This document shows positions 18,001 to 24,000 of a stretch of 28,245 nt of DNA, one piece after another. Made by a program: the position numbers. Origin of the DNA: Candidatus Krumholzibacteriia bacterium (GTDB lineage: Bacteria > Krumholzibacteriota > Krumholzibacteriia > LZORAL124-64-63); NCBI GenBank assembly GCA_046484865.1, contig JAWOID010000067.1, forward strand, positions 1-28,245, read 5' to 3'. Position 1 is the stretch's first letter; every line of letters starts with the position of its first letter.

Positions 18001-21000
18001 GCCGTGACCGGGAGATGGAAGCGGCGGACCGCGGCCGGCCCGCCGGCTTCCCAGAGACGGTGCAGCAGCTTGGGGCTGCCATCCGCGCGCCGCAGGCCGT
18101 CGGAACGGCCGTGAGCATCGCCAAGGGCCCCCCAGAAGACCCGCTGCACCGGCTCGTCCAGGGCCGCTGCGAGTGCGGCGACCTGGGCATAATCGCGCGT
18201 GGGCGGTCCCGCGCAGGGCAGCTCGGTGAGCCAGAGATGGGGCGCGCCGTCCTCGCGACCCGTTGTCTCCTCCCAGCCTGCGGCGGGCCACGCAGCACCG
18301 ATTCTCAGGTTCACGCCGTCCAGCGCGCGATCCACTGCCGCGGCATCGCGCACGTCGCCCTCGATCAGATCCACGCGTTCGTCGAGATCGTCTGCCATGG
18401 ATCCCCTCTCGTTCTGCTGCCCCCGCCGCAGACGAGTCCTCCATTGACGAGACCCAAGCTAAGTCCCTGCGAGTGCCTCGCCATGGGGCGCCCCCGGAGG
18501 ACGGGACGCCCCCGGAGGACGGAACGCCCCGGCGCCGTCACGTGCAGGCGACCGGATGCCGCGCCGCCCGAGGCCGGGGGTCGGGCGCCCGTGATCCGCT
18601 GCCGGGATCGGGTTTCTCCCCGAGGGCGAAAGACCCTTCTCCTCCTAGATTGTCCGCCGAGCCGGTCGTCGAGTTCCGGATCGGCCGCGAGAAGCCGCCG
18701 TCGAGAGGACCCGATCATGCCCGCTTCCCGGCTGCGCCGGCCGCAGGTGCCGCCGCCGTCGACGCCCGAGCAGGCGGCGACCGAGGTGGATCTGCGCTAC
18801 GTCGACGACGACGAGCCGGGCTACACCCGCGTGCGCTGGGGTCAGGGCTTCACCTACCGCGATTCGAGGGGCCGCACGGTCCAGGATCGGGTCCTGCGCC
18901 GCCGGTTCGATGGACTGGTCATCCCGCCGGCCTGGACCGACGTCTGGATCTGCCGAGACGAGCGGGGCCATCTCCAGGCGACCGGCCGCGATGCCCGGGG
19001 ACGCAAGCAGTACCTCTACCACCCCCGCTTCCAGGAACACCGCGCCCGCACCAAGTTCGAGGTCTTGCTGCCCTTCTCCCGGACCCTGCCGGTGATCCGC
19101 AGCCGGGTGGAAACGCACCTGCGCCGCAAGACCCTCGACCGCGACCTGGTGCTGGCGCTGGTCGTGCGGCTGCTGGACCGCACCCTGGTGCGCGTGGGCA
19201 ACCCCGAGTACGCCCGCGCCAACGACTCCTACGGCCTGACCACCCTCACGGACGACCACCTGGAGAGCGGCAACGGTCATCCGCTCGCCTTGCGCTTCCC
19301 CGGCAAGAGCGGCAAGGAGGTCATCGTTCCCATGACGAGCCCTCGGCTCGCGCGGCTGGCGAAGAGCTGCCAGGAGTTGCCGGGTCAGGCGCTTTTCGCG
19401 TACCTGGATGGGGAGGGCGTCGTGCGGCACGTGGACTCCGACGACGTGAACGCGTACCTGCGCGAGCTGGGCGGCCCGGGCGTGAGCGCCAAGATCTTCC
19501 GCACCTGGGGAGCCACGGTACAGGCGGCCCGCGATCTCGCCTGCGCCGAGCCCCCCACCTCCGGCGCGGCCGCCAGACGGCAGGTCACAGCCACGCTCAA
19601 GCGGGTGGCGGGCCGGCTCAACAACACGCTGGCGGTGTGCCGCGCCTATTACGTGCACCCGGAGGTGCCGGCAGCCTACGCCGACGGCACGTTGCACGAG
19701 GTCTTCGCGAAGCGCGCCCCCTGCGGGGCCGGTCTGCTGGCATCCGAGCAGGCCCTGGCCGACCTGCTCGCCCTGCGGGCTCGTCGCCGCCGGCTCGAGG
19801 GTACCAGCTGAGGAGGCGATCATGCCGCGCGCAATCTGGAAGGGATCCATCTCGTTCGGGCTGCTGAACGTTCCGGTGGGCGTCTACCCGGCGGAGCAGC
19901 GCGCCGACCTGAGCTTCCACCTCCTGGACAGCCGCAATCACGCCCGGGTGCGCTACCAGCGGGTGAACGAGGAAACCGGCGAGGAAGTCCCCTGGGACCA
20001 GATCATCAAGGGCTACGAGTATGACAGCGGCAACTACGTCCTGCTCGGGGAGGAGGACTTCGAGCGGGTGGCGGTGGAAACCACCCAGACCGTCGAGATC
20101 CAGACCTTCGTCGAGCGGGACGAGATCGATCTGACGTACTTCGACAAGCCCTACTATCTCGCCCCTGACCGCCGCGGCGAAAAAGGCTACGTACTGCTGC
20201 GCGAGACCCTGGCGAGCACCGGCAAGGTGGGCATCGCGAAGGTGGTGATCCGCACCAAGCAGTACCTGGCGGCGCTGGTGCCGCTGGGCGACGCGCTGGT
20301 GCTGGAGCTGATGCGGTTCCAGCAGGAGTTGCGCGATCCCGCCGAGTTGAAGCTGCCGTCGGGCAAGCCCGCGGACTTCAAGATCTCGCCCAAGGAGCTG
20401 CAGATGGCCAGGACGCTGGTCGAGGCCATGTCCACGGCATGGGATCCGTCCGAATACACCGACGAGTACCGCGAGCGCCTCATGGCCTACATCGACGAGA
20501 AGGCGGCCAACGAGGGCCGCGTGCCGGCGACCGAAGCCAAGGCGCCGCCTCCTCCCACCAAGGTCGTGGACATGATGGAGGTGTTGCGGCGCAGCCTCGA
20601 GGAGAAGCAGGGCGGCAAGAAGAAGGCGCCGGCGAAGAAGACCGGACGGAAGCGCGCGGCAGGCTGACCGCCGCCGCGACGCGGGAGCAGGCCGCCTGGC
20701 GGCCGGAACCCGGAGGTGGACCATGGCCCGTCGCCGGAGCGGCGATGCGGGCGACCTGACGGCGTACCGCCGGAAGCGTCGGTTCGATCGCACGCCGGAA
20801 CCGGCGGGGGACGAGTCGCGGAGCGAGGCACCTGGCGAGAAGAAAAAGGGCGCGCAAGGTCGGGACGCAGGGAATCGGAGCGCCAGGGATCGGGCCGCGG
20901 GGTCCCGTGCCAGGGCGGCGCGCGACGAAAAGGCCCCGGGCACGGCGACGGACGGCTGGTGCTACGTGATCCACAAGCACGACGCCAGCCGCCTGCACTT

Positions 21001-24000
21001 CGACCTGCGCCTGGAACTCGACGGCGTGCTCGTGAGCTGGGCGGTGCCGAAGGGGCCGAGTCTCGATCCGGGCGAGAAACACCTCGCGGTGCGCGTCGAG
21101 GATCACCCCCTCGAGTACGGAGAATTCGAGGGCGTGATCCCTCAGGGCGAATACGGCGGGGGCACGGTCATGCTCTGGGACCGTGGCCGCTGGGAGCCGG
21201 AGGGCGACCCGCGGCGGTCGCTGCAGAAGGGCAAGCTCACCTTCGCTCTGCACGGTGACAAGCTCGAGGGTCGCTGGACGCTGGCGCGCATGGGCGGCAA
21301 GGCGGCGGACGGGGACAAGAACTGGCTGCTCATCAAGAAACGCGACGAGCACGCCGGAGCCGGCCGCGACATTGACGCCGAGCGCCCCCGCAGCGTGCTC
21401 ACCGGGCGGACCATGGACGAGATCGCCGGAGCCGCCGACCGCGTGTGGAGCGGCGCCGCAGGCGAGCTGGAAACTCCGGCCGCAGCCGAAATTCCGGACC
21501 CTGCCAACCTGCCGCAGGCCCGTAAAGGCTCGCTGCCGAGGACCTTCCGGCCGCAGCTCGCAACCCTGGTGAAGTCGCCCCGCCGGGGCGACGACTGGCT
21601 GCACGAGATCAAGTTCGACGGCTACCGGCTGCTGGCGTTCCTCGAGCGGGGTCAGGTACGCCTGATCACCCGCAACGGCAAGGACTGGACCCACCGGTTC
21701 CCGTCGCTGGCGGAGGCGCTGGCCGAGCTTCCCGCCGACACGGCCCTGCTGGACGGCGAGGCGGCGGTCGTGGACGAACATGGCCGCACCGACTTCCAGA
21801 GCCTGCAGAACGCCTTGCGCGCCGAGGGCCGGCCCGGAGGCCAGTCGCGTCAGCTGGTCCTGTTCCTCTTCGACCTGATGCACCTGGACGGACAGGATCT
21901 CACCCGGACGCCGCTGGTCGATCGCAAGCGTATGCTCGAACGGCTGCTGGCGATCGGCCGCTCCACCGTCGGCCCCCTGCGGTACAGCGAGCACATCCGG
22001 GGCTCGGGCGAAGAGGTCCATGACAAAGCGTGCCGGTTGAACCTGGAAGGCATCGTGTCGAAGCGCGCGGACGCCGTCTACGAGCAGAAACGCAGCGCCG
22101 GCTGGGTGAAGATCAAGTGCGCTCGGCGGCAGGAACTGGTCGTGGGCGGCTGGCTCGAGTCGGACCGCCGCCAGGGGCTGCGGTCGCTGCTGCTCGGGTA
22201 CCACGACGGCGAGGGCCGGCTGGTCTTCGCGGGCAAGGTGGGCACCGGCTTCACCGAAGCGAGCCGCGCGAGTCTCGGCGAGCGTCTCGCCGGCCTGGAG
22301 CGGAAGACCTCGCCGTTCCGCGACCCGCCCCGGGAACCGGCGAAGCGGGTGCACTGGGTGCGCCCCGAGCTGGTCTGCGAGGTCGAGTTCACGGAGTGGA
22401 CCACCGACGGCCTGCTGAGGCACCCGTCCTTCAAGGGACTGCGCGAGGACAAGCCCGCGTCCGAGGTGGTGCGCGAGACCCCGGCGCCCGCCCACCCCAC
22501 CGGCCCCACCGGCTCCGGCGGCTCCGGTGGACCCGGCGGCCCGGAAAGGGGAGCCGACGTGACCACGCCACGCGCGTTGAAGACCGATGTGCGCCTCACC
22601 AGTCCCGACCGCGTCCTGTTCCCCGGCGCCGGCATCACCAAGGGCGAGCTGGCCGTCTACTACGAGGACGTCGGCGATTTGATCCTGCCGCACGTCGCGC
22701 ACCGCCCTCTGACCCTGGTGCGCTGCCCCGAGGGCCACCACAAGGAATGCTTCTACCAGAAGCACCACACGGGCACCATGCCGGATGCGGTGCACGGGGT
22801 GGACGTGCAGGAGAAGGCCAAGGAACGCGTGTACCTGACCATCGAGGACCTGCGCGGACTCCTGTCGCTGGTGCAGATGGGCGCCCTGGAGCTTCATCCG
22901 TGGGGCGCTCGCAACGACCGGCTGGATCGTCCCGACCTGATGTTCTTCGACCTGGACCCCGGACCGGACGTCGCGCTCGATCAGGTGGCCGCGGCCGCCC
23001 AGCGCATCCGCGACCGGCTGGCGGGACTGGGGCTGCGCAGCTTCGCCAAGACCTCCGGCGGCAAGGGTTACCACGTGGTGGTGCCGCTGGTGCGCCGCTC
23101 CGGCTGGGATCAGGTGAAGGGCTTCGCCAAGGCGCTGGCGGAGGAACTGACCCGGGAGAGCCCCGACGAGTTCGTCGCCGTGATGACGAAGGCCAGGCGG
23201 CGCGGCCGCGTCTTCGTCGACTACTTGCGCAACAGCCGCGGCGCCACCAGCGTGGCGGCGTTCTCCACCCGGGCCCGGGAGGGTGCGCCGGTATCGGCGC
23301 CGGTGAGCTGGGACGAGGTGGCGGCGGGCGTGGCTCCGGACGCCTTCCGGCTGGACAATCTGCGACAGCGGCTCGCCGCCCCGCGGCTGGATCCGTGGGC
23401 CGACTACTTCGAGGTGCGCCAGTCTCTCACCACCGCCATGCGACGCGAGCTGGGCGCCCCCTGACGAAGGGACCGACATGACATCGATCGACGCCCGCGA
23501 CCGACCGGATCCCCAGGGGCGCCGCCTCGAGCCCTGGAGCGTCATCTACGAGAGGTTCGACCCCGAGCAGCAGGCTCTTCGAGAGGCCCTGACCACGCTG
23601 GGCAACGGCCACTTCGCCACCCGCGGCGCCGGCGAGGAGGCAGAGGCGGGCGGACCGCACTACCCCGGCACGTACCTGGCCGGCGGTTACGACCGCGCCG
23701 AGTCCAGCGTTGCCGGGCGCATCATCGAGAATGAGGACCTGGTGAACTGGCCCAACTGGCTGCCCCTCACCTTCCGGCCGGAAGGCGACGCCTGGTTCAC
23801 CCTGGAGTCGGTGCAGTTGCTCGAGTACCGGCTGGAACTGGACCTGCAGGGCGGCGTGCTGCTGCGGCGGGTGCGCTTCCGCGACGGCAGCGATCGCGAG
23901 ACGGTGCTCGTGTCGCGCCGCATCGTGTCGATGGACCTCCCCTACCTCGCCGCGCTGCAGTGGGAGCTCACGCCCGTGAACTGGTCCGGACGCCTGGAGA

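Follow-up and report, generated by a model that had tools for sequence, protein, structure and literature searches.

The analysed DNA (the window, a complete contig of 28,245 nt) carries a gene for a type IB topoisomerase (TopIB) directly ahead of ku and ligD, the genes by which bacteria carry out non-homologous end joining (NHEJ). Does TopIB here belong to the end-joining reaction, or is it brought together with Ku and LigD by some other need of the cell? The genome-wide survey's note had offered the former as its boldest reading, with TopIB as a third NHEJ component, and had said that the three genes look like one imported cassette.

Gene content and layout of the locus

The genes and the intergenic region that bear on this question are the following.

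13352-13864, plus strand: DUF892 (YciF-like) stress protein gene (Pfam PF05974, E 6.2e-57)
14122-14679, minus strand: small membrane protein gene, last of the divergent unit; weak DUF1440 match, frame supported by GC3
14676-16982, minus strand: GH15 trehalase-like glycoside hydrolase gene (Pfam Glyco_hydro_15, E 8.8e-66; TREH_N)
16690-18444, minus strand: glycosyltransferase gene (Glyco_trans_1_2, Pfam PF13524, E 9.5e-40), divergent from topIB
18445-18716, no strand: divergent intergenic region, 272 nt, presumed promoter region of both units
18717-19811, plus strand: topIB, poxvirus-like bacterial type IB topoisomerase, 364 aa, catalytic pentad intact
19822-20667, plus strand: ku, bacterial Ku, 281 aa, lysine-rich C-terminal tail
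20723-23464, plus strand: ligD, three-domain (PE-LIG-POL) ligase D, 913 aa
23478-26195, plus strand: GH65 glycoside phosphorylase/hydrolase gene of the trehalose/kojibiose/maltose type (Pfam Glyco_hydro_65N/m/C)
26192-27862, plus strand: fusion of a beta-phosphoglucomutase-family HAD domain with a trehalose-phosphatase (Pfam Hydrolase, Trehalose_PPase)

The domain assignments of the survey's note were recovered for all three proteins. TopIB matches Top1B_N_bact (residues 44-92; 79 bits, cut-off 27) and Topoisom_I (residues 105-308; 101.8 bits, cut-off 23.7). Its catalytic residues, previously left unchecked, are present as the pentad R159, K197, R262, N303 and Y312. None of the five varies across 24 aligned homologues, and each aligns with its counterpart in the solved structure 2f4q of Deinococcus TopIB (match with E 3.5e-46, covering residues 45-352). 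In its two-domain build, length of about 360 aa and pentad, the protein resembles the poxvirus-like enzymes of Deinococcus radiodurans (DraTopIB, PDB 2f4q/3m4a) and Pseudomonas aeruginosa (PAT). To our knowledge, these have been characterised in vitro without an assigned cellular role or operon partners, whereas topIB here is set, by its sequence context, for translational coupling to ku. Ku matches the Pfam Ku family and scores 318 bits against TIGR02772 (cut-off 150). LigD contains LigD_N, DNA_ligase_A_M, DNA_ligase_A_C and LigD_Prim-Pol, scores 1033.1 bits against NF004628 (cut-off 895) and bears the motif strings HFDLR at 92, KFDG at 297 and DLDP at 743. Both proteins thus exceed the cut-offs of curated equivalog models, and their adjacent genes on one strand resemble the canonical ku-ligD operon of Mycobacterium, Pseudomonas and Bacillus (ykoV-ykoU). 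The present locus differs from that operon in having TopIB 10 nt upstream and trehalose genes following unbroken.

The three open reading frames lie on one strand exactly at the positions first reported, and the 10-nt spacing between topIB and ku is correct (TGA-GGAGGCGATC-ATG). Inside this spacer, a GGAGG stands 6 nt before the ku ATG; judged from the junction, topIB is placed for coupling its translation to that of ku. The ku-ligD junction sequence has a gap of 55 nt, and the ligD ATG is also preceded by a GGAGG ribosome site. The genes are intact, tightly spaced and look co-transcribed, in agreement with their earlier description as one operon. That description overlooked a co-directional run past ligD: the GH65 gene starts 13 nt after the ligD stop and overlaps the start of the fusion gene by 4 nt. 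Shine-Dalgarno sites occur at the junctions along this run, and no terminator-like sites were found on the plus strand between 18300 and 23700. A single transcript most likely covers all five genes.

Origin of the three genes

The idea of one imported cassette is not supported. The nearest relatives of both Ku (74% identity) and LigD (61%) are in genome G070 of the same family, where the order is ku-ligD-DUF892 and TopIB is lacking; the closest TopIB is an unrelated metagenome protein (64% identity), and the composition is native. The tetranucleotide distance of the segment with the three genes (0.0172) is below the median of random 4.75-kb pieces (0.0186), the contig as a whole ranks 27 of 101 contigs by this distance and is typical of the genome, and its GC content is 0.698 against 0.703. 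The DUF892 protein, the sole match to DUF892 found in its own genome, also has its closest relative within the family and is 59% identical to the one adjoining ku-ligD in G070. Another member of the family, G091, has a split ligD followed by a P-type ATPase, GH65 and the HAD/T6PP fusion, without TopIB. TopIB had been described as absent from the rest of the phylum; it is indeed very rare, but 2 of 201 sampled phylum genomes carry it, including the present one, and the other (G063) has TopIB and Ku on different contigs.

The adjacency might also be meaningless, arising from rearrangement or transfer in a plastic region with incidental spacing, or from a mis-binned contig. The genome is a metagenome-assembled one of 148 contigs (88% completeness, 5.3% contamination), of which the window is one entire contig; the family carries the stress genes unevenly (Ku in 1 of 86 other genomes, GH65 in 8 of 90), and linkage in an alphaproteobacterial family described below is sporadic. 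This explanation is nevertheless quite improbable given the typical composition, the same-family relatives of Ku, LigD and DUF892, the ribosome site within the 10-nt spacer and an independent recurrence elsewhere that argues against pure accident.

TopIB and end-joining genes in other genomes

Ku or an ATP-dependent ligase lies beside TopIB in 11 of 160 sampled TopIB loci (3/80 from genomes, 8/80 from metagenomes), and Ku occurs within 5 kb of TopIB in 6 of 52 genomes of one alphaproteobacterial family. These frequencies are similar to the 3.7% given in the survey's note. The linkage is far above random placement, estimated at 0.2-0.5% for the flank sizes used, but it is not above that of TopIB with DUF892, which is found near TopIB in 11 of the 160 loci (4/80 and 7/80). 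A control in the same alphaproteobacterial family, comprising 101 genomes with match coordinates read manually, gave a like result: DUF892 is within 5 kb of TopIB in 4 of 55 genomes, and among TopIB-bearing genomes DUF892 is present in 55 of 56 and Ku in 52 of 56. Since the pairing of DUF892 with TopIB is roughly as frequent as that of Ku, shared stress control is suggested and no new break-repair component is shown.

The adjacency recurs in unrelated lineages, is polyphyletic and takes at least six gene orders. On a TopIB tree of 156 rows, the 11 linked rows need 9 changes, 8 of them forced by well-supported branches. The layouts include topIB>ku>ligD (the present locus and G223), ku>topIB>DUF72>ligD (L118), topIB>ku (L122), ku>topIB (L032) and ligD<ku<|>topIB (L069, G234, G240). 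In a further layout, seen in 96 Rhizobium plasmid records, topIB has a 4-nt overlap with the gene of a stand-alone LigD polymerase. In addition, a stand-alone ATP-dependent ligase is convergent to topIB in L163, L171, L178 and L189. One apparent TopIB-Ku fusion protein (P0254), a singleton with partial domains only, was set aside as probably a frameshifted gene pair. No paper on the TopIB-NHEJ linkage had been found for the survey's note, and further searches of listings and abstract openings returned none; the word "topoisomerase" has no occurrence in three NHEJ surveys and reviews (PMC7719229, PMC6379672, PMC1378119).

These recurrences, with their many layouts and the convergent ligases, speak for TopIB as a true NHEJ accessory enzyme recruited by Ku or LigD to broken ends, and the repeated very tight coupling (the 10-nt spacer, the 4-nt overlap, L118) is also expected from a specific functional tie. 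Such an enzyme might deal with ends beyond the sealing capacity of LigD, joining or cleaning them. Without ATP, it could pass a 3'-phosphotyrosyl-linked strand on to a 5'-OH end; or it could incise at the sites where the LigD polymerase has left ribonucleotides, after which the PE domain would heal the 3' ends so formed. For the vaccinia enzyme, strand-transfer and ribonucleotide chemistry are known. For Deinococcus, a complex is reported that unites TopIB, an ATP-type ligase and PprA, an end-binding, ligase-stimulating protein by which TopIB is stimulated (PMC3893189, PMC6300522), and the authors of the P. aeruginosa study suggested that partner factors help religation (PMC2666729). PprA is unrelated to Ku, and the Deinococcus link is a protein interaction whereas the link here is gene order. 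Against such a role, all 11 Deinococcus species analysed in a review are reported to possess TopIB but neither Ku nor LigD (PMC6300522). No NHEJ gene is near TopIB in 149 of the 160 loci, TopIB and Ku are unlinked in G063, where the phylum sample has its one other TopIB, and the lone fusion is probably a frameshifted pair. With DUF892 equal to Ku in co-occurrence and proximity, a third NHEJ component is not shown; a role as accessory enzyme is unlikely, and TopIB is not proven to be part of the end-joining reaction.

TopIB might instead be a hazard. Where a nick, an abasic site or a ribonucleotide traps its cleavage complex, a protein-linked break would follow, and Ku and LigD would clean these up, so that the genes are kept and expressed together. 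Ku is indeed far more frequent with TopIB in the alphaproteobacterial family (52/56 genomes against 11/45 without TopIB), LigD has a 3'-phosphoesterase domain, and a notable part of the DNA is reported to stay nicked when purified P. aeruginosa TopIB acts in vitro (PMC2666729). Nothing was met to indicate that the PE domain of LigD takes off 3'-phosphotyrosyl or peptide adducts, although no search was directed at this point. The equal co-occurrence of DUF892, a gene without a link to breaks, and the Deinococcus species that carry TopIB without NHEJ (PMC6300522) make this highly improbable.

A candidate stress or dormancy operon

The neighbours of TopIB in the 80 genome and 80 metagenome loci are mostly stress-type genes: SDR (9 and 9, respectively), OtsA (4 and 1) and GH15 (4 and 0), with aldo-keto reductase (5), aldehyde dehydrogenase (5) and a PNPOx-like general stress protein (3) in the genome sample only. 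Long forms of TopIB, fused or run-on, bear SDR, DUF72, glycosyltransferase, MscS, Zn-ADH or SurE domains. The meeting of trehalose, TopIB and NHEJ genes recurs: G215 has topIB, otsA, T6PP, then ku/ligD; on pSymB of Sinorhizobium meliloti, topIB is overlapped by glgX with treZ alongside; and Rhizobium etli has the order SDR-glgX-topIB-PolDom. The topIB of these glgX operons resembles the present one in its company of a glycogen/trehalose gene, of which it is the downstream cistron there, whereas in Rhizobium only the polymerase domain is linked and ku and the full ligD are elsewhere.

The genes around the trio are of the same kind. The fusion protein scores 176.5 bits against the T6PP model TIGR00685 (cut-off 68.05), while the GH65 protein matches the NCBIfam GH65 domain below its cut-off. 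The GH15 protein reaches 350 bits against the trehalase TreH1, under the cut-off of 820; its listed reading frame overlaps the end of the glycosyltransferase frame, and its true start is probably downstream of 16982. The glycosyltransferase is 65-68% identical to those of two Acidobacteriota loci (L042, L057), where TopIB, DUF892 and OtsA are its neighbours' companions as well, and the small membrane protein scores 31.4 bits against PF07274 (DUF1440; cut-off 34.7).

The same functions (TopIB, Ku and trehalose) are found in the alphaproteobacterial EcfG/RpoE2 general stress regulon. Among the reported EcfG-dependent genes of Sphingomonas melonis are Ku, a trehalose cluster and a "Topoisomerase IB" that bears an EcfG promoter motif (PMC6599016), and ku3-ku4 and ligD4 of S. 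meliloti are under RpoE2 (PMC6379672). The members are scattered there, whereas they form one cluster here, in a different phylum. The 272-nt intergenic region has a tandem 22-nt repeat (18486-18525) and one ECF-like GGAAC-N15-CGT match (18521-18543). That pattern occurs 8 times in the window where 5.2 occurrences are expected, a difference short of significance. Sigma-70-like sites were not found in this region, and the 16-nt core of the repeat is not enriched genome-wide (38 hits against 26 for the reversed-motif control). The failure to find a recognisable promoter for the topIB run counts against a stress operon. We know of no EcfG system in the phylum of the analysed genome.

Taken with this reservation, a stress or dormancy gene cluster for DNA maintenance, in which TopIB would be co-regulated with NHEJ through a general stress programme, is given a probability of roughly 55%. 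The inducing stress is probably desiccation, osmotic stress or stationary phase. The five-gene transcript would start in the 272-nt region common to the divergent glycosyltransferase/GH15 unit, with the DUF892 stress gene nearby. Cells that do not grow, are short of energy and have a single chromosome copy would use Ku and LigD to rejoin double-strand breaks and the trehalose genes to handle a protectant sugar. TopIB needs no ATP, and it may relax or reseal the quiescent or re-awakening chromosome. On this proposal, TopIB and NHEJ would share their regulation as members of one general stress programme.

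Gene content and layout of the probable trehalose-linked TopIB operon

Three intact genes, for which the coordinates in the genome-wide survey's note proved exact, lie on contig C20 (28,245 bp, G+C about 70%) of a MAG of 148 contigs with a completeness of 88% and a contamination of 5.3%. They are faced by a divergent unit.

18717-19811, + strand: TopIB gene (P0001), 364 aa; PF21338 Top1B_N_bact, 79 bits (cut-off 27), and PF01028 Topoisom_I, 101.8 bits (cut-off 23.7)
19822-20667, + strand: Ku gene (P0002), 281 aa; Pfam Ku; TIGR02772, 318 bits (cut-off 150), residues 3-259; lysine-rich tail
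20723-23464, + strand: LigD gene (P0003), 913 aa; LigD_N (PE) 84-189, DNA_ligase_A_M/_C 277-577, LigD_Prim-Pol 639-892
Divergent unit, - strand, opposite to topIB: Glyco_trans_1_2 glycosyltransferase gene, GH15 trehalase-like gene, small membrane protein gene

The topoisomerase has the build of the bacterial poxvirus-like TopIB enzymes, with an N-terminal Top1B_N_bact domain, a Topoisom_I core and a length of about 350 aa. The active site, left unchecked in the survey, is invariant at R159, K197, R262, N303 and Y312 across 24 aligned homologues, and the residue alignment yields the Arg-Lys-Arg-Asn/His-Tyr pentad. These residues lie opposite positions 137, 174, 239, 280 and 289 of 2f4q (manual count; alignment E 3.5e-46), which we take to be the catalytic pentad of DraTopIB from Deinococcus. 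As a member of this family, the enzyme is predicted to relax supercoiled DNA independently of ATP via a 3'-phosphotyrosyl intermediate. P0002 shows the full-length match to the Ku beta-barrel core and the basic C-terminal extension of a bacterial Ku. P0003 combines the PE, LIG and Prim-Pol domains of a three-domain ligase D (NF004628, 1033.1 bits against a cut-off of 895) and contains the strings KFDG, DLDP and HFDLR, presumably its catalytic motifs.

The stop codon of topIB is followed after 10 nt by the start of ku (TGA-GGAGGCGATC-ATG), and the gap between ku and ligD is 55 nt, with GGAGG ahead of the ligD ATG. The survey's note had proposed an operon that ended at ligD; the close, co-directional arrangement agrees with an operon, but the run extends into a GH65 gene beginning 13 nt past the ligD stop and a beta-phosphoglucomutase-family/trehalose-phosphatase fusion gene overlapping the GH65 stop by 4 nt. 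The + strand between 18300 and 23700 contains no terminator-like site, and a search for a sigma-70-like promoter found none. A region of 272 nt separates topIB from the divergent unit, beyond which a DUF892 (YciF-like) gene is located. With these neighbours, the locus unites NHEJ, TopIB, trehalose turnover and a classic stress protein.

The pattern GGAAC-N15-CGT has one match upstream of topIB (18521-18543); with 8 matches against 5.2 expected, this ECF-type pattern is not enriched across the window. A 22-nt sequence forms a tandem pair upstream of topIB (18486-18525), and a third copy (86% match, 23452-23473) lies over the junction of the ligD stop and the GH65 start. The 16-nt core of this repeat is not enriched in the genome, where it has 38 matches with up to 2 mismatches versus 26 for the reversed motif, so the repeat may be a local operator or due to chance. 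Rfam gave zero matches across the window. A search of sequencing runs with window positions 18400-24400 retrieved no matching RNA run and a single soil DNA run with a word share of 0.14.

Further features were observed elsewhere in the window. A 31-nt repeat, of which three copies (81-100% alike) are spaced by 47 and 23 nt, occupies positions 13999-14099, in the gap between the DUF892 gene and a DUF1440-like gene, where neither a convincing small ORF nor an Rfam match was found. Past the last trehalose gene, at 27970-28080 and 28170-28200, there are three GTGGACCCGGGTGCAGGAC-like units and a promoter-like stretch, TTGACA...TATCTT, near the contig end. Positions 2903-7737 carry co-directional genes for a multihaem cytochrome c, a Rieske protein and two ORFs (408 and 402 aa) without Pfam matches, which are unrelated to the trio.

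Origin of the cluster in the Krumholzibacteriia genome

The genome-wide survey had regarded the three genes as one imported cassette, on the ground that no other genome of the phylum bears TopIB. Rare it is, but not confined to this genome: 2 of the 201 sampled genomes of the phylum carry it, the second being G063, where TopIB lies on one contig and Ku-LigD on another. Ku is carried by 27 of the 201 and, among sampled members of the window's own family, by only one other, G070. In this genome ku-ligD precedes DUF892, the three proteins sharing 74%, 61% and 59% identity with their window counterparts; two Ser/Thr kinase genes lie upstream and TopIB is absent. The G070 Ku is also the top match to the window Ku in a large protein collection. 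The nearest TopIB is the metagenome protein P0004 (64% identity), the remaining matches being at most 58% identical and spread over many phyla. In G091, another member of the family, a split ligD (PE, LIG, POL) and a P-type ATPase gene are followed by the GH65 and HAD/T6PP fusion genes in the same order as in the window. The window glycosyltransferase is 65-68% identical to those beside TopIB, DUF892 and OtsA in two Acidobacteriota loci.

Neither recent import nor mis-binning is indicated by the composition. Among the 101 contigs that reach 10 kb, this one takes rank 27 in tetranucleotide distance, and the trio segment (0.0172) stays below the median of random 4.75-kb pieces of the genome (0.0186). 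With the G070 arrangement without TopIB and this native composition, a single imported cassette is not supported, and the cluster looks like an assembly of separately circulating parts. The topIB gene may have been gained in the window's lineage or lost from G070. A juxtaposition without meaning, or one created by mis-binning, is quite improbable, and the typical composition of contig and trio argues against the latter.

The split ligD of G091 consists of three consecutive ORFs (contig C24, 13563-16155). No Ku was detected in G091 with the window Ku as query, and RNA ligase-like and AAA_33 kinase-like genes are found a few kb from the split ligD.

Neighbourhoods of TopIB in genomes, metagenomes and plasmids

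Two samples of 80 TopIB loci each were compared. The genome sample was drawn from contigs of one genome per species, with up to 8 kb per side; TopIB stands beside Ku and LigD in 2 of its loci (L032, L069), and a third (L060) has a ligase fragment 6 kb from TopIB. The metagenome loci have a mean length of 7.5 kb and a best identity of 56% to the window TopIB, the contig of P0004 not being among them. Three of these 80 contain Ku, in the orders ku>topIB>DUF72>ligD (L118), topIB>ku (L122) and topIB>orf>ku (L140). Six contain an ATP-dependent ligase: it is a stand-alone gene convergent to topIB in L163, L171, L178 and L189, lies at the end of the contig in L128, and is the ligD of L118. Ku or an ATP-dependent ligase is thus near TopIB in 8 of 80 metagenome loci, and in 11 of 160 loci when both samples are pooled. 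Both L236 and L140 have small ORFs that separate topIB from ku, but these show no likeness to each other.

A FastTree of 156 TopIB sequences was labelled with 11 linked rows (10 loci and the window; L189 unlabelled). The linked state requires 9 changes, 8 of them forced by well-supported branches; label shuffles need 10.7 on average, and 16 of 500 reach 9. These 9 changes indicate that the linkage is scattered and does not derive from a single spreading cassette. Adjacency of TopIB to ku or ligD is recurrent, polyphyletic and a minority state.

Plasmids and chromids bear TopIB on 377 records. In R. etli, the order SDR>glgX>topIB is followed by a gene for a stand-alone LigD Prim-Pol of 292 aa, which overlaps topIB by 4 nt. 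A query with these last two genes was covered to at least 80% in 96 plasmid records of the R. etli/R. phaseoli/R. leguminosarum/R. ruizarguesonis group, with 86-100% DNA identity among the full-length matches listed; stable TopIB-NHEJ adjacency occurs only within this R. etli/leguminosarum group. On pSymB of S. meliloti, topIB is overlapped by glgX, with treZ and a UdgX gene close by, and in Phaeobacter its neighbours are UdgX, a radical-SAM repair gene and a ligase-exonuclease pair.

Other partners were observed along the way. Several alphaproteobacteria have a gene of the UdgX family of uracil-DNA-binding proteins at or near topIB, namely in L069 (9102-11800), on a Phaeobacter plasmid (L102) and on two rhizobial plasmids (L099, L100); the first two of these also have a radical-SAM "DNA modification/repair" gene alongside it. 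In L118, the DUF72 gene occupies 2276-3283 between topIB and ligD, and P0244 (718 aa) holds complete TopIB and DUF72 domains in one protein; DUF72 is possibly a second recurrent partner of TopIB. In L032, from a proteobacterial MAG, genes for a UvrA paralogue and a glyoxalase/bleomycin-resistance-family protein lie directly downstream of ku>topIB (9828-12470). Two candidates were rejected. The TopIB-Ku "fusion" P0254 has only partial domains (Ku profile positions 1-111 of 190), is probably a frameshifted gene pair and was not counted as a Rosetta stone, and a 14-locus "UvrA-like" neighbour cluster consists of generic ABC ATPases, a UvrA-like gene being present in just 2 loci.

The alphaproteobacterial family of L069 offered a control. 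Its 101 sampled genomes are related, so that counts are not independent, and coordinates were compared by hand; the figures are indicative and carry no statistical test. TopIB occurs in 56 and Ku in 63 of these genomes (both in 52, TopIB only in 4, Ku only in 11, neither in 34), so that Ku is found in 52/56 TopIB-bearing versus 11/45 TopIB-less genomes. The DUF892 stress gene co-occurs with TopIB as strongly, in 55/56 versus 14/45. An excess of TopIB-Ku co-occurrence over that of other stress genes was thus not found with the DUF892 control in these related genomes. TopIB and Ku Pfam matches are at most 5 kb apart in 6 of 52 genomes (G205, G240, G234, G243, G223, G215), as compared with 4 of 55 for TopIB and DUF892 (G249, G296, G241, G223); in 8 genomes the distance between DUF892 and Ku is at most 5 kb. 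G223 has topIB>ku>ligD, the exact window order, with DUF892 2 kb upstream, and G215 has topIB, otsA and a trehalose-phosphatase gene before ku and ligD.

The locus samples give the same picture: DUF892 is beside TopIB in 4/80 genome and 7/80 metagenome loci, a total of 11/160 that equals the NHEJ-gene total. SDR genes are near TopIB in 9/80 loci of each sample, and OtsA, GH15, aldo-keto reductase, aldehyde dehydrogenase and a PNPOx-like general stress protein are further recurrent neighbours. Long forms of TopIB carry SDR, DUF72, glycosyltransferase, MscS, Zn-ADH or SurE domains. These stress neighbours suggest that TopIB, Ku-LigD, DUF892 and trehalose genes behave as co-residents of stress islands. 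As an indicative result, the TopIB-Ku linkage is not large enough to set NHEJ apart. Neighbour statistics alone cannot tell "same pathway" from "same stress island", and linkage percentages need stress-gene controls before they are read functionally.

Possible roles of TopIB beside NHEJ genes

The activity of bacterial type IB topoisomerases was established more than 20 years ago, and the standard picture of bacterial NHEJ comprises two proteins. No cellular role is assigned to bacterial TopIB in the literature examined. As in the survey's own search, no publication on TopIB-Ku/LigD linkage emerged from a full-text literature search judged by titles and abstract openings, and the word "topoisomerase" is absent from PMC6379672, the NHEJ survey PMC7719229 and the review PMC1378119.

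Stress regulation of the families concerned has been described. One study counts a Ku gene and a trehalose cluster among the EcfG-dependent genes of Sphingomonas melonis Fr1 and tabulates a "Topoisomerase IB" that has the motif GGAAC...GCATT at 24 nt upstream (PMC6599016). Another reports that RpoE2 controls ku3-ku4 and ligD4 in S. meliloti, and its authors state that in about 90% of ku-bearing alphaproteobacteria a ku gene is preceded by a putative EcfG box (PMC6379672). The window pairs stress-protective neighbours with families whose dependence on stress sigma factors is documented in these papers (PMC6599016, PMC6379672). Most likely, the locus is an operon for stress or dormancy, from which an ATP-independent topoisomerase would be expressed together with the NHEJ pair and trehalose enzymes (probability about 0.55).

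The survey's note had offered, as its boldest reading, TopIB as an accessory factor and third component of NHEJ. That TopIB acts directly in end joining is an attractive, testable and apparently unpublished idea, but the evidence does not raise it over shared residence in a stress island, and we consider it doubtful. In its more specific form, which is unlikely, TopIB would be a third catalytic member of NHEJ in stressed, non-growing cells, joining or tidying ends that LigD cannot seal. The topoisomerase would be held at a Ku-bound break and might perform ATP-free cleavage and religation on 5'-OH ends or on ribonucleotide-containing patches left by the LigD polymerase. If true, this would be the first cellular function for a bacterial TopIB.

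I-SceI ends bear 5'-phosphates and would be unsuited to TopIB strand transfer. The third-member reading might bear on P. aeruginosa, in which a 2026 study describes Ku-dependent, LigD-independent joining by an unknown sealing enzyme, with no discussion of TopIB (PMC13273297). The joining was, however, assayed on I-SceI ends (PMC13273297). The P. aeruginosa TopIB left nicked DNA in vitro, and the authors of that work proposed that partner factors act in vivo (PMC2666729). In Deinococcus, TopIB is reported to belong to a complex that also contains an ATP-type ligase and PprA, the latter having a stimulatory effect on TopIB (PMC3893189); a review lists TopIB, without Ku and LigD, in 11 of 11 Deinococcus species analysed (PMC6300522). 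A safeguard relation, in which breaks made by TopIB would be repaired by NHEJ, is very unlikely.

Genes for Ku, LigD, a stand-alone LigD polymerase or a stand-alone ATP ligase have repeatedly and independently become neighbours of topIB, and these neighbourhoods point to a testable condition for the enzyme, namely stationary phase, desiccation or general stress. They also supply concrete partners and cultured carriers in Rhizobium, Sinorhizobium and their relatives.
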